DNA of 63,952 nucleotides, filler included, from Dimargaris cristalligena (lineage: Eukaryota): the NCBI GenBank assembly GCA_003614675.1. It is 4 parts of 4 records of this genome, joined end to end, with 100 filler letters (N's around TTAATTAATTAA, not from the genome) between each part and the next. Parts side by side here need not be neighbours in the genome. Positions count along the whole stretch, not along the records: positions 32,991 to 49,280 come from ML002854.1; 3 more parts are not named here. One strand, given 5' to 3'. Shown here piece by piece: positions 7,466 through 62,819 of the stretch; the stretch's first letter is position 1; each line of letters begins with the position of its first letter. The translations under genes and the position numbers were made by a program. The notes below the pieces were generated by a model. It was not told the DNA's origin and did no database searches. It saw nothing but the letters and a program-made list of their open reading frames with translations.

Positions 7466-10400
7466 TTAGTACCACCCCAACAGCTTCCACCAGAAGGGGC
7501 CGATGACGGCGTAACAGGTTAGATAGAGCGCGAGTACTACCAGGCCATTGAAAAACCACCTTCCCCGGCTAATGTAATCCTGGCTGAAGTACATGACCAA
7601 CGTGCCCGTCGAGTAATTGGTTAGACAACTACCGAGCGCACTGAGGTAGCTGATCATAGCCACCGCAGGTCCGGCCGGACAGCCAAGCTCGAAAGCCGCC
7701 ATGAGAAGAGGAGAGCTCAGGGCTAGAATATGGCTAGTCGTGGACGAGAATAGGTACATGGTACCCACGTAAATAATGGAAAGGGCCCCCAGGGCGGGCC
7801 AGGGGGGTAGACCGGTCAGCTGGCGCGACAGGCCCTGACCCAGCCAAGTGGTGATTCCAAAGGCATTGAGTTGCTCGGCCAGTATGATAAAGCTACCGAG
7901 CCAGAACAGGGTGTCCCAAGCTGTGGTGTTGCCCAGTACGTCGGACCATTCCAACACCCGGGTGACCACCAAGGCCGCAAACGCCAAAAAGGCCACGACG
8001 GCACTGTCGATACCGGTCAAGGGGCCCGTAACCCACAGGACGAGTGCTCCAAGTAGGATGACGCACAGTTTCTAAACCGGGAATTAGTGAACACCCAATG
8101 GTTGTATGAGGAATATAGAGACAGATGCCAGGTGTTAGCGAATTCGTCTGGCATGGGAGGAGACCGGCAAAGAATGGCCAGTCGGCGGATAGCAATTGGG
8201 TGTTTCCCCTGTATTTACTGCACAACGGCAATGGACTACGTCAGGTTGCAATGCAGACAGTCAATATCAATCGGCGATATACAAGCACAGCCAGGCGGTT
8301 CAGTCAGCTGCACTTCTAATTAGCCTATTCCGGTACTTACCAATTCGCGCATGGAAAAAGGTTTAACGAACTGGCTCTGCTCCTCGATAGAGTCCCGAAT
8401 GACACAGGGTGGAATCCGAGGTCGGAAAAGGCGGTAGACTACCAATGGCATGAGTAGGGCAATGATTCCACCCGGCAGTAAATTGCCTAAAAACCATTTG
8501 CCAAAGTCCCATTGGAAACCAAAAATCTCCCGGGCCTTGGGGGCCAGTAAGGGGTTTCCGGCCATGCCCGTTATGAAGAAGGACGAGCTGATAAGATTGG
8601 CCTGGGCGGCAGCGAAGAGTACAAATTGGCCCATTTCAGGGTGGGTGTGGTGGCTGACTCCGAGCGATTCAATTACCGAAACCACAATGGGATAAATGAT
8701 CCCCCCACCTCGGGCCGTATTAGATGGAACAAAGGGGGCCAATAGTATCTCTACAGGAAATGATGAAAGGGGATGGTTATGCAGTGACTACGGGGTAGGG
8801 TGAGTCAGGCCGTCGACTGTCCATGGTGGGGTGGCTCGTATTTGGATTCAACCGGTTGAATGCTTGGATGACAATGTGAATTCCGGGGATAAACTTACCG
8901 GCCAGGGTAAAGGCGTAGGCGATGCCCAGGGCAGAGCCTCCCATGGTTCGAAGCAAAGTGAAGCCAATGCGTTGACCAAGCCCGGAGAGCTATTATTCCA
9001 TAAGCAATAGTTGAAGTACCAACACCAGTGGGGGTATATTATAGTAGGAAGTGGTAGGGGTTAGTCGAATTGGTAAAGGGGCATGTTTGTCCGATGACTG
9101 GGTATATTATATATATGTATTAAACATTGGGTCATGCGGAAAATCCGACCATGTGGTACCTAGTAGTAAATCAACTAGAGGGCGAGATTCTAACTAGGTC
9201 CACCATCTGAGCTTATGGATAGGTTAGTTGCCAGCGGGGAGGCACTTACCATAACGGCTGTATAGTGTTGGGTCCAATCGGCCAGTTAGGGGATAGTAGG
9301 TAGATTAGTGATGACATCCGTAAGGTTATGCATGACAAAATGGCAACATACATGTAGCGAGATTTAGTATAGGCCGTCGTTTATCGAGCGACTGATATCG
9401 CAGCCCCTCACGGGATTAACTTGTGGGCATCATTGTCCATCTACCCATGGCACTTGATCATGCCCATGACTACGCATACACCGCGTGCAGCCGATATTGC
9501 GGAGACTTACCTTTGCCAATGTGAAACGCACTAAATACCTATGGAGCCAGGTCAGCAGCATCCCAGGGGTAATGATGGCAGCAACAGGAGAAAGAGGAAG
9601 GGGAGAGTAAGGGCAGGAGGGGGGTTAATGCAGGATCATGTAAGTAGGTGGAATGGCCCAGGATCACCCCCCACTCTAGTCGACGAGTTTGGACTAGATT
9701 AGAAGGCCGCATGCGAGCATATACCGAGGGTATATATATATATATATATATATATAAACGGGGGAATGATCAGGACAGATATACGCATAGTTTACTTACC
9801 AGCCAATTAATCTTGTTGGAGAAGCCGGACACAGCAGTTTGAAAAGCGCCCTCCATACCGTGACAAAGGGGGCGGCCGTCAGGTCCGGTCGTCTGACAGC
9901 GGTGACAGGCTATCCAGCCGCCTTCGGGGGTGGAACACTGCAGATTCTGAGTAACGATTAGAAAGGCTAGGGCCAAAGTTACAATCACGGACAGTTCGTA
10001 GGACGTGAGCATTACCGCGGCAATCATGCCAATATAGACGCTTAGAATCCGCGGACCGGTGGGATCGAGGTAGGCGGGATACGGAAAGTGCCACAGGCCC
10101 ACCACGAGCAGAAGCACGGGGAGAGTGCGAATCAGGGGGAACCGATCCCAGACGCGCCAGAGGTTGGTCCTCAGGTCTGGGAGGGGGAGTTATTATAGAG
10201 CGTAGAGTGCATAGGAGTTCGGGATAGTAAGTTTATTGGCTGGTCGCTAGGAACTAATGGCCGAGGTGCAGAAATTGAGCGCACTGCTCGCACGTCCACA
10301 CTCGAGTTTATTGGGGGTTTAAGGGGGGTGCAATATTATACCCGGTTGCATAAAACGATAGTTCCACCCTCCTTCTCTCCTTTCCTCGCCTTCGGACTAA

Positions 10401-16400: not shown

Positions 16401-16500
16401 NNNNNNNNNNNNNNNNNNNNNNNNNNNNNNNNNNNNNNNNNNNNTTAATTAATTAANNNNNNNNNNNNNNNNNNNNNNNNNNNNNNNNNNNNNNNNNNNN
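16401..16500. other. Artificial contig-joining linker (N44-TTAATTAATTAA-N44)
   Basis: The 12-mer carries stops in all six frames, sits in a 100-nt N block, and is identical at three places. Confidence 0.97.
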
Positions 16501-32890: not shown

Positions 32891-32990
32891 NNNNNNNNNN
32901 NNNNNNNNNNNNNNNNNNNNNNNNNNNNNNNNNNTTAATTAATTAANNNNNNNNNNNNNNNNNNNNNNNNNNNNNNNNNNNNNNNNNNNN
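32891..32990. other. Artificial contig-joining linker
   Basis: N44-TTAATTAATTAA-N44. Confidence 0.97.
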
Positions 32991-38481: not shown

Positions 38482-40685
38482 ATGGATGTCTCTAGCGCCC
38501 TTGAGGCCCACAAGAAGAAATTGTAAGCAGGCCTCCTTTTCTTATTAGTTGCTTAAACCCAGCCCGCCTAGGGTTTATAAACATATATTCCCAACGCTAC
38601 TTGCCGAGGACCCGCTGTCGTCAAACACAACTGGGGGTATGCTCGGCCATATCTATATATAGACATATATATATGCCTGGTCAATGGGACGCAATAGGCA
38701 AGGCCTCTTTCAATTAAGCCATTCACTAAACTGCTCCATATACGGCGCCTTCTCTATCCCCCCTTCCAGTAAGACCACCGAGGTCGAAAAGGTGATTCCG
38801 CTCGATATCGACCTGGGGCTACTAACCGCCAGCGATATCAACGTGCTCGATGATTCCCTCCTGAAAAGCAAGGATACCGCTGCCCTGAACAAATATCTGC
38901 GGCGCATCACCCGGGACGGAGCCCAGCTGCTGATCAATAGCATTTTCTCGCGACCCACTCGCACCACCGAGGATTCGGTGATTGCCGAGCTTCCCAAACC
39001 CTTCTTGAAACTGCCCCGCGAGAAGCACGTAAGTGGCCCTATTCACTCTATGAGCCATATGCCCATGCCACTCTGGGTTTACATCGTGCCGCTCATTTAT
39101 AATTGCTCGACTATTAACCCGGCCTTAGTATATTTTTTACTATATCTAAATCCCCATTGCCCGAGTTTTTTTTTTCTTTGTATGGGTTAACTAACATTGC
39201 TTCTTTTGAATTATACCTCCACTTTCTTACTCTCCTTCCACCAGGTGCCCAAACCCAAACCCCTCACCCGCTGGGAGAAATTCGCCCAAACCAAGGGTAT
39301 CCAATCCACCAAGCGGTCCCAGAAGGTCTTTGACGAAGCGACCGGTGAATACCTCCCTCGCTGGGGCTACCGCGGGGTCAACGACGCCGAGAAGCAATGG
39401 TTGGTGGAGGTCAAGGACGGGGCCGATCCCTTCCAAGACCAGTTCCAGAAACTCCGTGACGAGAAGAAGGAGCGGGTCAATAAGAACCAGCGTCGCCACC
39501 AGCGTAACTTGGAAGAATCGGCGGCCGAGCAGCGGTCCATCAGCAACCCACGGAGTATGCAAAAGAAGGACCTGCAGCGGACCCTGGTTCTCTCCAAATC
39601 CTCCACCGCCTCGATGGGCAGATTCGACCGGCAGTTGGTTGGTGAACCCAAAGTCAAGGGTGTTAAACGCAAGGTAAGTTGGGTATTATATAGACGAAAC
39701 CAACTCTTAGTTTCAACTCCCAGCTTAATGTCTGGGATATTGGTCCTTTGATAATAGCCGAACTACGGGATACCGCAAACTCGTTTCATTTTCGAAAGAA
39801 AACACGGCATCCCCTACCTCATTCCTAAGCTAGGAAGTACGACCGGTGCTTATACCTAGAGTCATTGAGCGCTGTGCATCTTTTCCATGCCTTCTCGAAG
39901 TTGACCTCCCCTATTCACCCCCCCCTTTTTTTCCGCCATTGCCATTCTGGTATACTCGAATCCTGTTTTCGGAATCGAGCAGCCAAAATAGTAAATTTTG
40001 AAGGCTGGGCGCGAAGGCCAGGAGGTGGAGGGAAACTACGAGGGGAAGATTGGAAAGTGGTGGTGGTGGACTACATGGGGTGAATGGATCGGGTCACTCG
40101 TATCATTGTCCATTTGGGTTAACGATATTCCGATGTTTTTTGTGAAGTCATTCTAATTTTCTATCACTGTGTATCCCTCTTGCCCTTACTTAATATCGAA
40201 TAGTTCAAATCCAACGACGTTGATGCCGGTGAAGAAAAGGACACTTCTCTTAAGCTGCTCAAGAAAGTCGTGGACGCGCCCAAGGGCAAGATCGACGTCC
40301 ACAAGGTAAGTGGTGTTAATCATCTAGCAGCATGCCCAAGTTATAGCCCACGAATATGGGAGAAATTCAAACCAGCTGTATAAGGTTTTACATAATACGT
40401 GTATGGACAAATATATGTGAGAATATCTTTTAACCAGTAATATTGGCCTCATCCAATGGATTTTTCGTTATACAGCCTGAATGAACTTCTCCCATATTAA
40501 CGTTGTGGCTATTTTACTACTATTATTGAAATGCCAGCCCGTTTATTGCCAAACCCCTATTGAAAACTCGCGTTTTAGTGTACTAATATTTATATTATTG
40601 ACTTGATTTATTCACCATCATGGACTTGTGTTTATTACTATCTGGTTATACCTTTATACAGGCCATACGGAAACTCAAGAAATAG
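38482..40685 (+). CDS. RRS1: Ribosome biogenesis regulatory protein Rrs1, 5 exons
   Basis: MDVSSALEAHKKKF|KTTEVEKVIPLDIDLGLL...TRDGAQLLINSIF...LPREKH|VPKPKPLTRWEKFAQTKGI...PRWGY...STASMGRFD...GVKRK|FKSND...IDVHK|AIRKLKK*, with GT-AG introns. Confidence 0.94.
40358..40493 (+). mobile_element. MITE copy 3 (136 bp, ATAT TSD) inside the last intron of RRS1
   Basis: ATAT|GGGAGAAATTCAAACCAGCTGTATAA...TTATACAGCCTGAATGAACTTCTCCC|ATAT; the 26-bp TIRs match at 21/26 positions. Confidence 0.92.
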
Positions 40686-42364
40686 GTTTAACGACGCTTG
40701 GGTATACCTCGGGCCCCGAGCTTTGGCTGCTTGTCTTTATGCCTTGGTGCGCGTTACCAATCCCATGTGTAACCTTTTGCCGGCAGCCCTGCCCTATTTT
40801 TGAAAATAACTAGCCTTAGTGCCAATAATAAGGCCGCCTACCTCTCTCTTCAGCCTAATTATTGGGGCATTTAAGGGTATGCCGAATTCTTTCGGCTGAC
40901 ATTTTCTACATCTCGCTTAAATTAATGAAATACAGGCGGGCGGGGTATCTTTATACCGAGTGGCTTTAATAAAACCAGATGGGGGACCAGCCTAAATCTG
41001 TGAATTTCTTCCACAATGGAGACTGCCCCTACATTATATAAATACATAAAAAGGTGTACCCCCTACTGATTAAACCGGTAATGGGAGTCGTGAAAGCACA
41101 CCAGTGTAAGGTGTGAGGACTCTCTAGTAGAGACCAATCCCGCTGCCTTCGAAATAGCCATCAAGAGTATTAATATAGAATAAACGATGGCAGCGTCGAC
41201 TACACGGCAATTGAGTGAGTGGGCGATGTATTCAAAGTGCCTCAAGTCCAGTATTTTTATCCGCCCAGCTCATAAGGGACTGGTTATGGTACCCTTCCTC
41301 GCATTTGCATCTATAGTGTTTAGCCGTGTTAAACGATATCCGACTTCGGCCAACTCGGACTTCGCTAACTCCTGTAACTCTGGGGCACTTCCAGATTTTG
41401 ACCTATCTTGGGTCGGATGATTATATTACCCTGGCCGGAATTGGACAACCTTAGCCACTATAGGCACTACTAAAATGGACATGAGAGGTGAGGAAGAATA
41501 GGCTAAGGACTCAAGGAGTGTTATGCCCCTGATTAAGTTGGTGCGTCAGGGTAGCCGATTTTCTCAACTTAAACTCGAGCTTGCCGGATGCACACACTGC
41601 CCCTATTCTAGCTATCATACGGGGGGGGGGTAACCAGAGAAGAGTGAGGGGAGACGGTGAGTGGGGGGATATGGCACGGATTGATTGCGACGGACGAAGT
41701 ATTAGCCATCGTAGCGTCCGACAAAGAGAAGGTGGAACCGGGTCATAAAGACGGCGAGGATCGAGGCCAAAAAGTTGACCCAACACAGCCCCTTTACCCT
41801 TTTGGTTGATCTTTCAATCATCCCTAACTTCCCTTCCCCTAAACTATCCCCTATTCTCTAAATTTGGCCACCTCAGGCCAAGCGGGCGGGCTGTAAAGGG
41901 TAGGGGCCCCGAAGAAAAAGGCTTGCACGGGGCCTTCAGGGAATTCGGGAGTCGGACGGCAGGATATCCGCTATTTGCCCATGAGCATCATTGGCCTTGT
42001 ATGTCCTTTTAGTATTGCTTGGTCGCGATGTTACTAATGGGTGCCGGGGCTGTTGGTAATGGCATTGTGGCCGCGGCCAGCTAGATATACCTGTTGGTCA
42101 CACACACATATATATATAGACGGGTATCCCGCTGTTTCGGTTTAATAATCATCAACCTACGCCCGCTCTCCTCTCTTGACTTGCCTCTTCTCACCCCTCT
42201 CGCTCTTTCACAGACACACTCGTACATTGCTCTAATCTTAATTAGTTCCCCCACCTCCTAGTCACACCCCCTCTCTGTTTTTTTTGTGTTTTTCATTTTT
42301 ATTTTGGTCTCTCGCAACTCTCTCCCCACCCCTCACTTATACCAACCCATTTTAAAACATTACC

Positions 42365-42589
42365 ATGAAGTTCCAACTGCTGGTTCTGGTCGTGGCTGTG
42401 CTGGCGTGCCAGCTTGTCTCTGCCCGCTCTTTGGAAAAACGTGAGGTGGAAGCGGGTGCCGTGAAACCCACTCCCCAGCATTTGGAACGCCGTATATTCG
42501 GCAGTTTATTGACAATGGTAGCCAAGTATGTCGCCCCCACCGTCATCAACAAGGTTTTCGGCAAGAGTTTGACTAAGGGGGTATTGTAA
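42365..42589 (+). CDS. Small secreted prepropeptide (74 aa) with Kex2-type KR/RR sites releasing a 31-aa cationic amphipathic peptide
   Basis: MKFQLLVLVVAVLACQLVSA (signal)-RSLEKR-EVEAGAVKPTPQHLERR-IFGSLLTMVAKYVAPTVINKVFGKSLTKGVL. Strong start context (ACC ATG), with a TATA-like run at ~42109-42118 and a CT-rich leader. Confidence 0.82.
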   Translation: MKFQLLVLVVAVLACQLVSARSLEKREVEAGAVKPTPQHLERRIFGSLLTMVAKYVAPTVINKVFGKSLTKGVL

Positions 42590-43972
42590 TACTATTTTTC
42601 ATTAATTACCTATTTACTTGAAAAAATGGGTGGGGGGAACGCATTCTTCGGGGGGATTACGCTGGAGAGAGGGGTGGTTTAGCTGGCCTTTTCGTTCGTA
42701 AATGGTCAGTTTAATTAGCCGTAAATATTATTTGCTTTCAATGAAGTTAAATGGTGTTCCACCGACGAGCTCAATGCCCTGTTTTAGTGTCATCAAGCTG
42801 GCGCCCGCGGCCGATTCGAGAACCCAACCAATACTAAGTACGAACGTCGGTCCACCACAACATATCTTGGTCATCGTTGGCCACCTTCCGGCCCCCTTGG
42901 TTCCACGTCGGTTTACCCCATTTCCACTTTCTCCCCCATACTTTATGAAAAATCATTAGCCAGCGCAGCCATTTAGTAATATGGTATTTACGATAAGTAG
43001 TTTGTATAGTTAGTTCCTCGTCGGGATCGCATAAATTGTAATAAATCTACCTAATTAAAGTACTCGTATTCCTGGCCAATTTAATGGCGGAGGGTCCCAG
43101 TTCGAGGCTTCATTGTTCATCCTACGCGAGGCCCGCTAGGTTAGGTCATTGGCCAAAGTTGAATTGGCGGGTATAGTGCTAGTGGTCCGCTTTCTGGTCC
43201 CGTTTTATATTAATGGGTCGATTCCATCCTCCACAGCCTACCTATCCGCACCTTCCTCCAGCCTTGGCGTGGTTATCCGGCCTGCCGTTGGCACTGTTAC
43301 CACTTGGAAGTTCAAACACCCGACGCTTCCCATCATGTAAACCCATCTATAACTATAGTAAGCCAGGTTCGTTAGTGCGCTGAATTGACAAGTTGAATAA
43401 AGTCGACGCCCGTTGAAGCTGTGGTTATCTAAATGCCACAGGTTTATCGAGAAAGTACGGGAGCTTAATTGCCGAAGGTATTTTAACACCTTTAAAACTC
43501 GCGCTTCCCTCCTTCACCTATTCAATATCCATATTCCATAACCAACACCTCATTAATTGGTATGAATGAAGCCTACGACTGCATGGGTCCTGGAGTAAGC
43601 TGTAGATGAGGCAGTAGGCGGTATATTTAAATTTAGCTAGTACTCCTATTTCGAGCCGTTGGTTGGTCCTCCGTCGAATAAAAAGTATAGGTGTGCCGTC
43701 TTCTACTCTACGGCGACTACATTTAATGGACATATTACACGTATTTATAAGCATTGCCTACAAACCAGTGTCACGGCTACTTGGGTTTATCACCTAGCCA
43801 GTAGTAATTCGGTACCATTATCAGGTCCGGAAATTCATTTAATGAGGGGTGAATGTCTAATTGGGGTTTCCCGAAATTGTTATTTTTTTGTGCGTAAGAA
43901 GTATATACAATCCCGCCTCATAAATATAGCTATTTTTTTTTAAAAAAAACAAATATGTAGCAATTGTAAATT

Positions 43973-44653
43973 CTAGGATCTAACCAGCATAGTCTGGGGC
44001 CGCGGTTTCAGGGGATGCTGGGGCATAACTATAGCCTTTTCATTAGAGTGCGGGACACTGCTATCCGGTTGATGATGGGACTCGGGGTTCTCGGTAGAAG
44101 TCGGGCTAAAGCGGTCAACAAGTTCGAGAGACCAGGGCGCCATATCCAGGGACACTGTCAATGGCTCCCATTGGGCGTCTACGAATTTCATTAGCATCAG
44201 GTAGCCACTGGGACTGGGGGGAGTTGGCTCTAAAGAATAGCCATCCGAGTCCAGGCTCATTTGCGCTCGCTCCGGGCCACTGGTTTCGCTAGTTTCCGGG
44301 GACGAAAGTTCCATTGATGGACAAGGACGAGGACCGGTACCACGCTGGTTAAACATCCGATTACGGGCTTTTAGCGTATGTACCCAGTGGTGGAATTTGG
44401 TGGTTCTTTGCTTAGAGCCCGGTAATGTACTAAAAGATACGGGCGATTCCTCAGGTCTACATGGGCATCGACGAGTAATTTCAGGGGAGGTGGTAAAAAA
44501 GCCCAGCAGCCCGTTTATTTGCTCGTCCGAGTAGGGCAAATCGAAATGGTGGGCATCCGCCGAACTGGTTTGGGCTGCGGTTCCCTGAGTTTCGGGTTGG
44601 GCTCTGAAACGCCGAATGACCCAGGTGAAGATTTGGAAAAACTGAAAGGCCAT
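43973..44653 (-). CDS. Hypothetical Ser/Pro-rich protein (226 aa)
   Basis: Uninterrupted ATG-initiated 681-nt ORF in AT-rich intergenic DNA; no recognisable domain. Confidence 0.45.
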   Translation of the reverse strand: MAFQFFQIFTWVIRRFRAQPETQGTAAQTSSADAHHFDLPYSDEQINGLLGFFTTSPEITRRCPCRPEESPVSFSTLPGSKQRTTKFHHWVHTLKARNRMFNQRGTGPRPCPSMELSSPETSETSGPERAQMSLDSDGYSLEPTPPSPSGYLMLMKFVDAQWEPLTVSLDMAPWSLELVDRFSPTSTENPESHHQPDSSVPHSNEKAIVMPQHPLKPRPQTMLVRS

Positions 44654-45753
44654 CTTTAAAGTAGATTATAATGGCTGATTCGCCCAAAGTCTATAATCAC
44701 TGGGAAATGAGAATTAAGAACTGGGGGCCTGGGATTTAGAGTGGAATTGGAGACAGTAGGGGTAAGTAGCTGGGTAATGGATGCGAAAATAAAAAGAGGG
44801 CCTAGATTTAATCCTGGTCCAAAAGGTTAAGGTATCTCACAGGAGGCTGTTACAATGTTTTTATATGGACTTACAGCCCCCTTGAGGCTATTGATTGTTG
44901 AATACCAAATATTTCTAATCGCCCAATTTTTGGACTGGAGGATTATATTAAGAATTAAAACATAATTATGTATAGTTCTTGGTATTTATTGATATTTCTT
45001 TTACGTACGACTAACTCTTCCGCCCTAATTGTAAATCGCCGCCGGGGTTGATAAGGATGTATTGAATAACTGTCCTATTACCTTGATGACGACTTGGTGA
45101 ATCGGAGTAGGACTCCGTGGAAGACCGCTGATTATTATCAATAATAAATCGTACTTTCTTTATTTCGAGTTTAGGGGGGCGGTGCAACAATCGGGTATTG
45201 TAGAGTGAGTCCAATAATCCTTCCAGTAACCACTCGGTCTGTCGGTAGGTTTCGATATTTGTAACTCGGAATGTGAGTAAGTAGCTACTATTAAGGCCAC
45301 TAAAGTTTCTTATCCGTTTACTACTATCCACAGTACATCAGCCTCAGCATTAATCCCAGTTGTTGTTCTTATAGTTGGATCCTACCTCGGAACTAGCCGA
45401 TTAGTCGGTTGTTTAGCCAGGATGGCCAACAAAGAGGAAACCAGTGGCGCACTGATTATATACTGAAGGTATTTTAAGCGGGAATGCCAGCTATTGTTCA
45501 AAGGATACGGGTATTATTCACGAACAACCAAATACCATGCTCCCAAAGAGACGGCTATTTATTTATATTGGAAAGGGGCTAGAGTTAGCAGCTGCAATAA
45601 AAGCAGCTCCCTTATAGTACCGAGCGTCAGTGTAAAAATGAGCAAGGCATGCTACCTAGAAGTTGTAAATGTGGTTTGGGTTTTAATAAAAGGGGGGTTG
45701 GCCTGATGGGCTCGAAAGGTTACTCAGTAGCGAAAGGCAAAGATACCGGCTCA

Positions 45754-45951
45754 TCAGGGCGAGGTATAATGTCCGCGGTAGTACATGGCGTAATATTCCT
45801 TGCGGTTGAGAATCGAGGCGAGGTATTCGGAGGAGCTGGCCTGGTCCTCGGCGGACATGTCGCTAAAGCCAAAGGGCAGGTCATATTCATCAAGCGGGTA
45901 AGCGGGGTGAACGTTCTCGTAGGGGTCGGAGTCGGTATAGCTGAGCGTCAT
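45754..45951 (-). CDS. Hypothetical 65-aa acidic, Tyr-rich microprotein
   Basis: MTLSYTDSDPYENVHPAYPLDEYDLPFGFSDMSAEDQASSSEYLASILNRKEYYAMYYRGHYTSP*. GCACC-ATG context, C-ending codon bias like the housekeeping genes here, and an upstream CT-rich tract and TATAAA (~46113-46118, minus strand). Confidence 0.55.
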   Translation of the reverse strand: MTLSYTDSDPYENVHPAYPLDEYDLPFGFSDMSAEDQASSSEYLASILNRKEYYAMYYRGHYTSP

Positions 45952-47747
45952 GGTGCAGAGCGTAACGGGTGAAAGAAGAGGGGGGAGTTGGGAGAGGCGA
46001 CACAGGTCGACGAAAGTAAGATTGAAAAATAGGGTAGCTGAGTAGAAGGGAGAGAGCAGAGAAGGCGGAAACGATGAACTATACACAAAAAAGAGTGGGC
46101 GGAGGGCTTCAATTTATAAGTCTCGCTAACTAAAAAAATTCAGGGGTAGGATTGGGGTGATGAACACTCTCACTGCCCGAAGGTATGCAGATCCCGAATG
46201 GTGTTGCGTACGACAGGGAAGCACCGGCGAGTCTATTCAAGTGATATCATAAAGCTTTTATTGGCTGGTGAGGGGCTGGACGGGGGCGACCAAGCCTGTT
46301 TATTGATGTGGAAAAGGCTAAGGAAGAAACAACTCACTTTGGACTTAGTGATGGCGAGTGCGGTCGCTTTCCATGTCGGCCGACGAGCTCAGATTTTCTT
46401 GCTCGGCCAATTGCTACACCAGTCGCGGTAGTAATTCAGTGGTCTTGTTCGCATCTAAACATAGTTTTGATGCCAGTTGGTGAACCATACTTGCTCTTAA
46501 ATGTTTGCCGGTACGTATGGCGTACTTTGTCGTTAAACCAAGTATGTGCCCACACTAGTTAAAAATGCGTTTATACTCGTCCCTCCCTCACTCCGGCCCC
46601 GTTTACACAAGTACAATATACTCGGCTGCGTGGATAATTTAATGACTCAATACGCGATGGCAGATTGTACTCAAATTGTCCATGGCAACCCTTTAGCCAC
46701 CGTCGCCGACACCACAAATTAATAACAACTCTTGCATTTGTTGTATTAGAAGGGCAACTGAGAGACTCTTCGTTTTACAAGTATAGTGGTTGGCTATAAC
46801 TTTATGTTCTTGAAATGCTTTTGTTGAATGGTTATTAGTTCTCAATTGTTATACCTCACCCGTTTTCCTAACATCTCCAGTGGTCGACAGCCCAAATGCC
46901 CTCCGTACCCCCGAGCCCTTGTATGTGGCCCCATATCCCCCCTACAGCCTAAAAAAACTATATATGTATCATGCCATCAAATTCGGCCAACGTATCCAAT
47001 GTCCAAATACTCATCAGCTCCCGACCTCTCCTTCCCCGAACTTAGTTGGATCTCCAGATGGCATCGCCCAAACCACTGCAGTATACCCTTAAATGGGCAA
47101 AAATTTCTCACCCCTCCGGATAAACTCGCAGCGGTGGTGCCCAACCAAGTCAACCACCCACTTGACTGTGAAGTGTAGTACCAATGCAACACCACAGCCA
47201 AATCTTAATAGCTATTTCTTTCTTAGGGGGCAATGATGGGTCGAAATAAGCAGCCTTGCGTTTAAATTGCTCTGAGTAAGAAAAAAGGAATGGGATACCT
47301 GATTTGGCGGATGTGAACTGTGGTTTGACAAAGATATGTAATGATTTCTCAAGCCAATGCCATGGTGCTAAAATGTCCAAAGCTATAGTGCTGTCCAGCC
47401 GGCCATGACTGATCACCAAAGGCAGATACCAATTCCTACCTATGATGAATCAAACGAAATATATATATAACCCCAAGTTATAAATTCATCAGTATAGCCT
47501 TCAGCAGCAATACTGAATTAATGAAGTCACTGTAAGTGAACCTAGGAAGGAAAGGTGTGGATTAGGAGAGGCATAAGGCTATTTGGCATGTCAATGAATT
47601 AAATAATGCTATTCTACTGATTTTCAATAGTCTCCAAGACCCTTCTACTTACTGGCATCCATAATATTATTTTTGATATTTAGTTAAGCAGTAAAATTAG
47701 GGCCTCACATGAGATGTCTTTAATGAGTATTAAAAGATAGAGATAAT

Positions 47748-49280: not shown

Positions 49281-49380
49281 NNNNNNNNNNNNNNNNNNNN
49301 NNNNNNNNNNNNNNNNNNNNNNNNTTAATTAATTAANNNNNNNNNNNNNNNNNNNNNNNNNNNNNNNNNNNNNNNNNNNN
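49281..49380. other. Artificial contig-joining linker
   Basis: N44-TTAATTAATTAA-N44. Confidence 0.97.
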
Positions 49381-60351: not shown

Positions 60352-62819
60352 ATGTCGTACGATGCCGGCTCCAACTCCCGCCGCGATGGCCCCCACATGG
60401 ACGAAGACTACCGCCAAACCTCTCGTGAACGGTACCAGCGCGACCGCCGTAGCCGAAGTCCCGAGGGTCGAGGTAAAATTATTGACAATGGGTTTGTCGG
60501 AGACGATCCCAATACATACCTCTTATTAAATCCCCTTATTTGATAGCGTCGTTCATGAGATGACCTTCGTTGTTGGTTCCCCAGGCTGCACCACACTTTT
60601 GGCACCTCTCCTTTTGTATCAATACTAACCTTGGCCAACATCCGTTCTGATATTTACTTGTTTCCTTAGGCTATTCATCACGCCCCAATTCCCGTTCCCC
60701 TCGCCGCCCGGTGGTAAATGACGGCGATCACTATGTGCCCAACTACGATCGGGAGGGCTACGCACCTGCCCCGCGTTACAACGATCGGCCCTCCGGCGGT
60801 GCCGATCGTTACAATTCGGATAGCCGTCGAGATCAGGGTGGCCGACCTGACCTGGATAATCCCAATGAGTTCAACGGCATGGAAGCCTACGGCCCCATGG
60901 GCCAACGCCCCCACTCCTCCCGGGGCGGCATGGTCGACCCCGAAAAACTGGACTATATGGTGACCCTCAAGTACTTCACCGACTACTATCGGTCGAAGGC
61001 TAGCGGCTCTAAGCACTATAGTTCCGACGAAATCGATGAAAGGTACCAGGAATACAAGCAGAATTTCCGTGGTCGCCAACACACAGCCTTCTTCACTGCT
61101 CACCAAGAAGATGATTGGTTCCGGGAGAAGTACCATCCCAAGGCTCGGGCTGCCCGACTCCATCATCTGAGCATGGCCAAGGTGCCCCGTTACGAGCACT
61201 TTGTCCGTCAATTGGAAGCCGGTGCATTCGATAATGTCAGCATGGACGAGCCACCGAAGGGCGATGGCGAAACCGCCGAACCTGTTCAGAACAATCCCGA
61301 CCATGAAACCCACACCCTGTTTATCAAGACCATCCCACCTAGTATCGGTCGCCAGCGCCTTGAGGAATTCTGCTCCACTGTACCTGGGTTCCAGTACCTG
61401 GCCCTCACGGAGGCTAACCCCACTAAGAAGTTCCACCGTTTTGGCTGGGTGAAATTTTCCCCCAACACCGATATGGATACCGCCCATCAACAGTTGGACC
61501 GGGCCAAGATTGATGAATTCCAGTTTCATTTCAACCACCACCAGCCCAGTAGCACTCAGCAGACCCGATTGGCGTCCGATATCTGTAACACCCCGGAGCG
61601 ACTCACCAAGGACTTGGCAACTAGCAAAGCCTTGATTGAGACCCTCGATGCGGAAGTGAACGGAGCTCTCGCTGAGGATGTTGTCCCTCGATTTGAGGGA
61701 GAACGCCTACTTGAAGTGCGGGAGGCCTCCCTGCTAATTGCTCGCGGGGAGAACCCCGAGGGCGGTGAAGCTGACGATGCCTCAGTTCCTCGCTTGAAGC
61801 TGCAGCTCGATATACGACTCGCTTATTTACGGGCGATCCACTACTTTTGCTACTACTGTGGGTCCGAATGCGAGAGCGCCGAAGACTTTGCGCGCAAGTG
61901 CGGGGCCCATCATTACCGGCGTCAGCCTCAAGGTGCCGTCCACAAGAGCCAGAGCACCACCAACTGGCTGGCTGGACTGGATGAGCGGTTGGCTATGCGC
62001 ACCGATCCCTCCACCGGCGCCGAGCTTGAACGAATGGGCGGCAAGAGCCTAGACAAAGAGCTAGAGGCCATGTCGCTGAAGCACATTGAAAAAGTCGAAG
62101 AGGGCAAGTATCGCTGCGCCCTCTGCAGCAAGCTTTTCAAGGGCGAGGCTTTCGTCGTTAAGCACATCCGCAACAAGCACCCAGACGCCATTCAAGTAGG
62201 CGATTTGGAAGAGAACACGGCATTCTTCAACAACTATGTTCGAGATTCCCGACGTTACCAGACCCCAGCCACGGGTATGCTCCCCGGCCAACTACCGGGT
62301 GCTATGGGCTACGGCTTCAGTAACCCCATGATGGGAGGCATGATGAACCCGGCCATGATGATGAATATGGGTATGGGGATGGGCATTAATCAGCGCATTG
62401 GTGGGCCAATGATGAACAACGGTAACGGGTATCCCGGCCGGGGTGGACCGGTCCAGAATCCCATGTTCATGGGTAATGCCTTTGCCATGGGGGGCATGAA
62501 CCCCGCGATGCTCATGGGAATGGGCATGGGTATGGGAATGGGAATGGGGGGCCCCAACGGAGGTATGATGGGTGGTGGTGGCAACTGGGCCAACGGCGGT
62601 GGTCCCAACCGGGGCTACGGTGGTGGTCAGGTGCGGCCGCCAGGCGGAAATAACGCCATGGGTGGCCGACCAGGAAGCAGTGCCAACTTAGGTGGCAACG
62701 GTGCCCCTGGTCGCGGAATGCCACCGGGTATGCGGGCTGATCCCCGTCAGATGCGATCTTACGTGGATTTGGATGCCCCGGCCGAAGGTGATATGGGTGC
62801 GGACAATAATTTCCTCTAA
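60352..62819 (+). CDS. ARS2: ARS2/SERRATE RNA-processing factor (cap-binding complex partner), 2 coding exons
   Basis: Exon 1 60352-60472, intron to 60669. Motifs YQEYK...FFTAHQEDDWFREKYHP, RRM-like TLFIKTIPP...FHRFGWVKF, LAYLRAIHYFCYYCG, C2H2 YRCALCSKLFKGEAFVVKHIRNKH and C-terminal DPRQMRSYVDLDAP. Confidence 0.93.

Follow-up and report, generated by a model that had tools for sequence, protein, structure and literature searches.

The question raised by a short open reading frame (ORF) of the fungus Dimargaris cristalligena is whether it encodes a stand-alone secreted prepropeptide, from which a cationic peptide of 31 residues is cut, or is part of a longer spliced gene or a chance ORF. The ORF lies in a stretch of 63,952 nt (hereafter the window), along the whole of which positions are counted; ORF searches and statistics cover the window, on both strands where stated. 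The coding sequence occupies positions 42365-42589 on the + strand and consists of 74 codons, beginning with ATG, and a TAA stop codon (protein P0001). An initial annotation of this DNA had proposed that the released peptide is a membrane-lytic or antimicrobial toxin. Judged from its sequence, the locus probably holds a small gene that is real and unspliced and encodes a secreted peptide processed by kexin; it is a candidate, not a discovery. Published papers are cited by PMC accession.

Precursor layout, gene start and relatives

The precursor begins with a predicted signal peptide of 20 residues (42365-42424, +), made up of MK, a 16-residue uncharged hydrophobic core and VSA before RS, with V at -3 and A at -1. 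Its Kyte-Doolittle means over 19 residues were 1.8-2.2. The cleavage position was inferred from the -3/-1 rule, together with a heuristic test of n-, h- and c-regions; alternative sites compatible with the rule occur at residues 14, 15, 19 and 22. The pro-region (residues 21-43; 42425-42493, +) carries two L-E-[KR]-R sites, LEKR at residues 23-26 (42431-42442, +) and LERR at residues 40-43 (42482-42493, +), so that P4 is Leu and P3 is Glu at both dibasic sites. EVEA occupies residues 27-30, directly after the first site. The predicted released peptide (residues 44-74; 42494-42586, +) extends from LERR to the stop codon. Its 31 residues include four Lys, no Arg, Asp, Glu or Cys, and a Pro at position 15, giving a net charge of +4. 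In-silico cutting at KR/RR yielded three fragments of 6, 17 and 31 residues, which share no motif except L-E-[KR]-R at their ends.

The ORF coordinates, the hydrophobic 20-residue signal, LEKR, EVEA, LERR and the composition of the 31-mer were all present exactly where the initial annotation had placed them. With four Glu against six Lys/Arg, the pro-region is not net acidic. EVEA is there, but it is not a clean STE13 signature, because the first dipeptide, EV, is neither X-Ala nor X-Pro (criterion of PMC6339444), nor does EVEA precede the 31-mer.

Four features that are largely independent of one another come together at this ATG: a signal-like N-terminus, the ACC context, a pyrimidine-rich leader and the lack of ATG in that leader. 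The 142 ATG-initiated ORFs of at least 50 aa in the window (a count that leaves out one further ORF containing N) include a single one with a signal-peptide-like N-terminus by the heuristic test, and this is the ORF described here. The same test was passed by 3 of the 430 ATGs followed by at least 40 open codons; apart from the present ATG, it was passed by an ORF of 41 aa and by a Met within the NIPA transporter. The start codon stands directly after ACC (42362-42367, +), a context identical to that of the NIPA, threonine synthase (ThrS) and Ubc9 genes and found at 19 of the 430 ATGs. Upstream lies a putative promoter-proximal region with the 5' leader (42060-42364, +), which is rich in pyrimidines and has no + strand ATG. 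The 250 nt before the start codon are 71.6% C+T on the coding strand, a value reached by 0.21% of 250-nt windows on either strand; the upstream pyrimidine fraction was 0.57-0.69 elsewhere (six Pfam-supported genes and one unassigned ORF). The closest upstream ATG is at 42059, which leaves 306 nt free of ATG, and 3.0% of 250-nt windows lack one. As for the other genes, NIPA has no upstream ATG, and a single one precedes each of ThrS, Ubc9 and arrestin, no nearer than -188.

The frame of the ORF was the best of six by codon log-odds (0.18 vs at most 0.05), and its G+C content at third codon positions (GC3) was 0.65, compared with 0.62-0.71 in four Pfam-supported genes. In an assembly of D. cristalligena, gene callers chose this ATG as a start too, and 71 of 73 residues are kept there. 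These findings suggest that the ATG at 42365 is very probably a real gene start. Two antisense ORFs (42299-42481 and 42352-42546) had negative codon scores and were rejected. (TA)n/(CA)n microsatellite runs were observed at 42100-42118 and 9700-9770. The former, approximately 250 nt upstream of the ATG, could act as a TATA-like element; it is not promoter-specific, because a similar run also lies inside a symporter intron.

A phmmer search of 1.84 billion representative proteins revealed a single homolog, P0122 (E 1.3e-36). P0122 is a protein of 147 aa, entered at NCBI as 'hypothetical protein H4R33_005972 [Dimargaris cristalligena]', and corresponds to the same locus in another assembly. The locus was therefore not missed by annotation, as had been supposed; it is already annotated in the public model as a hypothetical protein of 147 aa. 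The first 73 residues of P0122 are those of codons 1-73 of the ORF except for V64A and S68G (71 of 73 identical; tblastn on the window), and its remaining 74 residues correspond to two stretches of the window that lie farther downstream. The codons of V64 (42554-42556, +) and S68 (42566-42568, +) both lie within the predicted mature peptide. The 43 residues of the signal and pro-region carry no replacement, and neither do the 73 residues translated from model exons 2 and 3. The chance that both replacements land in the mature part is about 4% by our own arithmetic, assuming random placement over these stretches; the pattern was noticed post hoc and synonymous changes are invisible in it. It gives no more than a hint of faster evolution of the active part.

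A paralog family with a conserved pro-region had also been suggested as something to look for; none was found by the window search or by phmmer of the 1.84 billion representatives. A sequence search of the PDB gave no match at E <= 10. The hmmscan against Pfam-A (E <= 10) returned only PF10161 DDDD (E 0.025; 14.7 bits vs a cut-off of 27) and PF21827 New_glue (E 0.24), both of which were rejected as below threshold.

Unspliced ORF or spliced public model

The public 147-aa model was re-created on the window with GT-AG introns and three exons. Exon 1 (42365-42585, +) ends at the donor GTAATA, and intron 1 (42586-42787, +) contains no CTRAY in its 202 nt. Exon 2 (42788-42906, +) is followed by the donor GTCGGT. 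Intron 2, of 330 nt, lies between 42906 and 43237 (+), with its sole CTRAY 186 nt from the acceptor. Exon 3, including the stop codon, occupies 43237-43340 (+), and its coding status is uncertain.

To these signals we compared the introns of recognisable genes in the window. The donors of the gene-supported introns were GTAAGT in five of six cases and GTAGGT in the sixth, and CTRAY, often as ACTAAC, was found approximately 15-70 nt upstream of all six acceptors (RRS1, two in the symporter, two in Pho88, and Ars2). The organism has few introns, and for a fungus they are rather long, with measured local lengths of approximately 110-265 nt. The RRS1 intron (39029-39245, +) has its donor at 39029 and separates Pfam profile positions 1-75 from 72-165. 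Symporter introns on the - strand have donors at 9799, 8898 (to 8788) and 8340 (to about 8075), the profile passing from 269 to 272 at the last. The two Pho88 introns (about 2636-2444 and about 2394-2200, -) were inferred by reading only. GTAAGT occurs 44 times among GTNNNN hexamers, vs about 33 expected by hand arithmetic, a difference that was set aside as uninformative.

Neither of the two model donors fits GTRNGT. Within the ORF, GTRNGT occurs once, as GTATGT at 42526, and shares the phase of the model donor. Over the next 900 nt a branched acceptor is found only at 43101; its use would produce an intron of 575 nt and a product of 78 aa whose tail is nonsense. An unspliced 74-aa product is favoured because both model introns lack a GTRNGT donor and a usable CTRAY branch. 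The initial annotation had named splicing near the stop codon into a longer protein as a result that would speak against it. The public model does splice there, from a slightly different donor than the one named, but its splice signals do not fit the local rules.

The sequence beyond the stop codon points in the same direction. Model exon 2 showed no frame preference (model frame 0.07 vs 0.08 and 0.22), and the 60-nt bin with the stop codon shows a drop in GC to 0.33. Residues 68-147 of P0122 had values below 50 for the predicted local distance difference test (pLDDT; AlphaFold2 from a single sequence, which is weak evidence). The extension has no Pfam domain on record and no relatives outside the P0122 cluster. 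Model intron 1 is probably not an intron; it would comprise the final codon's last base, followed by the stop codon and 3' untranslated region. Exon 2 is probably not coding. Low-coverage Kickxellomycotina assemblies were annotated with Funannotate, using GeneMark and Augustus trained on BUSCO (PMC9866270). On the assumption that P0122 belongs to that annotation set, its model is most likely ab initio. In the public model, ab initio callers seem to have extended a short single-exon gene too far. Provided that the gene is real, a stand-alone unspliced structure is likely.

The predicted peptide, its possible activity and the alternatives

The 31-mer had a mean hydrophobicity of 0.64 on the Fauchere-Pliska scale and 0.36 on the Eisenberg scale. 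With these values, a charge of +4 and no acidic residue, it agrees in charge and hydrophobicity with the class of linear cationic amphipathic peptides. Its residues 1-14 (42494-42535, +) are amphipathic as an alpha-helix: the hydrophobic moment at 100 degrees was 0.505 (Fauchere-Pliska, p = 0.0010) and 0.394 (Eisenberg, p = 0.0016) in 20,000 within-segment shuffles. The mean of both halves of the peptide gave p of about 0.04 (20,000 shuffles). A sharp hydrophobic periodicity of the whole 31-mer was observed at 85-90 degrees (about 4.0-4.2 residues; p <= 0.001 vs shuffles) instead of the 100 degrees that an ideal alpha-helix has. AlphaFold2, run on the single sequence, predicted helices at residues 3-29 and 37-72, the latter with pLDDT of about 47-75.

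The usual Kyte-Doolittle cut-off for a transmembrane helix is 1.6. The best 19-residue mean in residues 43-66 was 1.29, and the reading of this segment as a transmembrane anchor was rejected; a stable anchor is unlikely because the C-terminal maximum of 1.29 compares with 1.8-2.2 in the signal peptide. A glycosylphosphatidylinositol-anchor signal was rejected by eye, with three Lys among the last 12 residues. The nearest language-model clusters of the precursor were bombinin (0.84), brevinin-2 (0.82), dermaseptin (0.81), temporin (0.80) and cecropin (0.77). When the 31-mer was taken by itself, dermaseptin and frog antimicrobial peptide (AMP) clusters were the named matches (0.78 and 0.76).

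KR and RR had been taken as the Kex2 cleavage signal, and they are indeed stated to be the usual KEX2 sites of fungi (PMC6339444). Zoopagomycota rank highest for Kex2-processed repeat proteins (KEPs) per strain, 11.56 over 16 strains (PMC7329392). If the ORF is expressed and left unspliced, its signal peptide would direct the precursor into the endoplasmic reticulum and be removed after VSA20. A kexin-type protease of the Golgi would then cut after LEKR26 and LERR43, releasing the 31-residue peptide with its net charge of +4, central Pro and no acidic residue. Trimming of the C-terminus by a carboxypeptidase would not be needed, because the 31-mer ends at the stop codon. Its Lys residues and the amphipathic helix at its N-terminus may bring the peptide to membranes, the Lys-bearing second half being less ordered in polarity. 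It may bind or disturb lipid membranes, either those of competing microbes or, at the haustorial interface, those of the host fungus. Membrane activity is plausible from these properties, and membrane binding or disturbance would be the most likely activity; a specific lytic or antimicrobial function is unlikely. The whole chain, from a real, stand-alone, intronless gene of 74 codons through a secreted prepropeptide to a released peptide, is the preferred, though tentative, proposal, which we consider possible but short of probable.

A number of results weigh against this proposal, and they bear on different alternatives. The codon evidence is modest: 17.7% of 509 length-matched stop-free segments score as high as the ORF, and among the 100 ATG-initiated ORFs of 50-120 aa that lie outside the four training genes, 8 match its codon score and 9 its GC3. 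The length of the ORF, with 100 such ORFs present, is not significant by itself. Relatives are also lacking. No ortholog or paralog beyond P0122 was found among the 1.84 billion representatives, a word-indexed search of proteins of 40-130 aa gave no match, the window holds no paralog, and none of 593 pattern matches in metagenome contigs was confirmed, so that no homolog outside the species is known from the protein libraries and contigs searched. All this would agree with a chance ORF whose hydrophobic start happens to lie downstream of a pyrimidine-rich tract. Such an origin is improbable in our judgement, in view of the coincidence of four features at one ATG, the best of six frames, and a frame that is intact over 73 codons in another assembly with two conservative replacements. 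The ORF could also be only exon 1 of the longer secreted protein H4R33_005972, in which splices from 42585 to 42788 and from 42906 to 43237 drop the stop codon, add 74 residues and leave no free C-terminus to the 31-mer. The public model has exactly this structure and was reproduced on the window with GT-AG introns, whose lengths of 202 and 330 nt are normal for the organism, lying within the local range or slightly above it. The model frame of exon 3 was the best of three (0.24, scored without the stop codon; GC3 0.65), for which reason codon statistics do not reject this exon. Nor do they reject exon 2: the share of length-matched open segments that reach both the codon score (LL) and the GC3 was 9.2% in the case of the ORF, against 10.8% with exon 2 and 10.0% with exon 3, the last computed with the stop codon included, which lowers the exon 3 value. 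P0122 and the window do not differ in the translation of exons 2 and 3, and the splice rules themselves rest on six introns deduced from Pfam continuity or reading, not from RNA. Yet the donors GTAATA and GTCGGT match none of the six gene-supported donors, neither intron has a usable CTRAY, exon 2 lacks a preferred frame, the extension is without domain, relatives or confident structure, GC drops at the stop codon, and an ab initio origin is most likely for the model if P0122 comes from the set assumed (PMC9866270). We regard the exon 1 alternative as rather improbable.

Other results concern not the gene but the activity of its product. Residues 16-31 showed no significant moment at 100 degrees (p 0.52 and 0.29), and the whole 31-mer, or its best 18-residue window, was not above shuffles at that angle (p 0.35-0.76; 5,000 shuffles). 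The i/i+3/i+4 amphipathicity that had been described for the peptide was thus borne out by the hydrophobic moment for residues 1-14 (p about 0.001), but not for residues 16-31 or for the whole peptide at 100 degrees. The mean AlphaFold2 pLDDT was 66, which is low to moderate. The language-model scores are all below 0.9 and are a lead only; a third of shuffled proteins reach 0.8. The RR site is directly followed by Ile, the 31-mer starting with Ile-Phe. These points leave room for a real gene whose secreted product is not lytic but is a signalling or pheromone-like peptide, a surface-active peptide of the Rep1 'repellent' type, or an uncut small secreted or membrane-associated effector. The evidence from the gene start and signal peptide serves such a product as well as it serves a released membrane-active peptide, and just half of the 31-mer is significantly amphipathic. 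Typical alpha-factor-type pheromones are shorter and less hydrophobic than this 31-mer, and its 31 residues, hydrophobicity of 0.64 and charge of +4, as well as the lack of an X-Ala/X-Pro signature before it, argue against a pheromone. The absence of repeats argues against a Rep1- or KEP-type precursor, and the Kyte-Doolittle maximum of 1.29 against a stably membrane-anchored form. Kex2-released fungal peptides have many roles, as pheromones, hormone-like peptides and, in Ustilago, Rep1 peptides on hyphae (PMC6339444). Zygomycetes abound in orphan small secreted proteins (SSPs), with 47,494 in 132 genomes, 74% of them in non-singleton groups (PMC9391592). A non-lytic secreted product is somewhat unlikely as a whole. 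We return to the released, membrane-active peptide with this reservation: a lytic or antimicrobial function rests on composition and language-model look-alikes and is doubtful.

Little is understood of the way in which obligate mycoparasites such as Dimargaris breach host hyphae or manipulate them. In animals, linear cytolytic peptides that are encoded by genes are well known. We know of no gene-encoded linear membrane-active peptide toxin outside the Candida clade, nor of any in fungus-on-fungus parasitism. The locus may indicate, though we consider this improbable, that a haustorial mycoparasite of the Dimargaritales makes an independently evolved candidalysin-like toxin, a kexin-released, linear, cationic peptide of 31 residues that would permeabilise fungal-host membranes at the host interface. 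If true, it would be, to our knowledge, the first such toxin outside the Candida clade and the first in fungus-on-fungus parasitism. A kexin-released membrane-active peptide would then be a simple, testable candidate for the host-breach step and a possible antifungal lead. In the available parts of the literature on Kex2 peptide toxins of mycoparasites and on small secreted or antimicrobial peptides of Zoopagomycota, no such peptide was described for Dimargaritales. The genome paper, in the part available, reports no shared orthologous signal of mycoparasitism, and the word 'kexin' does not occur there (PMC6784888). If the peptide is inactive or the ORF is not expressed, the locus would be one more orphan small secreted protein among thousands in zygomycetes. 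It is also, if the unspliced structure holds, a worked example of an annotation problem, in that a three-exon 'hypothetical protein' hides a prepropeptide layout from pipelines that mine secretomes and peptides.

Genes around the locus and comparison with known systems

The origin of the window agrees with the early-diverging fungus named at first. The nearest named relatives of its threonine synthase are Dispira, Dimargaris verticillata and Tieghemiomyces, all Dimargaritales (63-67% identity), and the sole homolog of the ORF is labelled Dimargaris cristalligena. D. cristalligena is a haustorial mycoparasite; it is treated as an obligate mycoparasite in PMC6784888, and Dimargaritales are described as mycoparasites in PMC9866270. 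The genes recognised by Pfam in the window encode a NIPA Mg transporter, an arrestin-domain protein, a fungal-type threonine synthase, Ars2/SERRATE, RRS1, Pho88 and a Na/sulfate symporter. A Ubc9-like ORF was recognised by eye, not via Pfam. These housekeeping genes lie mostly on long uninterrupted exons; NIPA, arrestin, ThrS, Ubc9 and the main Ars2 exon are single long exons.

Three ORFs on the - strand were also noted. The first, of 230 aa at 43973-44665, is oriented convergently with the peptide gene. Pfam gave no match for it and its codon score is weak (0.11 per codon); it probably represents a lineage-specific gene with its 3' end towards the peptide gene. A short acidic ORF at 45754-46113 (65-119 aa) had the top codon score among small ORFs (0.33-0.55 per codon) and a GC3 of 0.75, and is likely an exon of an unrecognised gene. 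The ORF at 62295-62687, antisense to Ars2, scored 0.48 per codon, a high value that is probably an artefact, the coding sequence of the sense strand being of low complexity and rich in Pro/Gly. Pairs of 44-base N runs at 16401-16500, 32891-32990 and 49281-49380, approximately 16.4 kb apart, are filler between joined parts.

Among known systems, candidalysin, which is cut from Ece1p of Candida albicans, is similar in design to the 31-mer. Both have 31 residues, are free of Cys, hydrophobic and without acidic residues, and have Pro near the middle and Lys towards the C-terminus; the features of candidalysin were read from the sequence printed in PMC5784256. Both are also released from a signal-peptide-bearing precursor by kexin after a dibasic site, a step that is predicted here (PMC5784256). 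Ece1p is a 271-aa polyprotein with seven KR sites, in which candidalysin is flanked by Kex2 sites on both sides and is trimmed by Kex1 (PMC5784256). In contrast, the precursor described here has 74 aa and two sites, with RR on the N-terminal side only, and its peptide ends at the stop codon. No sequence homology to Ece1 was detected: Ece1 was absent from the phmmer search of 1.84 billion representatives, which gave one match only, and Pfam gave nothing significant. The parallel with candidalysin drawn in the initial annotation holds for the design but not for homology. Any target would, unlike that of candidalysin, be another fungus or microbes, because the organism is a mycoparasite of an early-diverging lineage.

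Precursors of frog skin peptides (bombinin, brevinin, dermaseptin and temporin; PF03032) and insect cecropins have the same layout of a signal, a short propiece with a dibasic end and a C-terminal, cationic, helical peptide of 20-35 residues. In frog skin precursors the propiece is acidic and ends in KR before the cationic mature peptide, whereas the propiece here is not acidic (four Glu vs six Lys/Arg) and ends in RR. Neither PF03032 nor any other AMP family gave a Pfam-A match at E <= 10, the frog and cecropin language-model scores are below 0.9, and the organisms belong to a different kingdom. The likeness to frog AMP precursors is at most a convergence of design.

The KEPs, which are frequent in Zoopagomycota, are likewise small secreted precursors with KR/RR sites for the release of short peptides (PMC7329392). 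KEPs are defined by repeated peptide motifs, with four or more fragments, each 2 aa or longer, after in-silico cutting at KR/RR (PMC6339444). The ORF is not a KEP, because it yields only three fragments and no repeats, despite a signal peptide by the heuristic test. Alpha-factor-type precursors have KR and then X-Ala/X-Pro, the STE13 signature, directly before each repeated mature peptide (PMC6339444); the 31-mer, unlike these, directly follows RR, starts with Ile-Phe and has no repeats. The SSPs of zygomycetes resemble the ORF in being secreted proteins of less than 300 aa without a Pfam domain and confined to one lineage, about a quarter of the 47,494 being singletons (PMC9391592). Most SSPs are thought of as folded effectors, whereas the 54-residue pro-form described here has dibasic sites that predict the release of a linear peptide. 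The ORF is neither a KEP nor a homolog of candidalysin, but an orphan instance of a known prepropeptide design.

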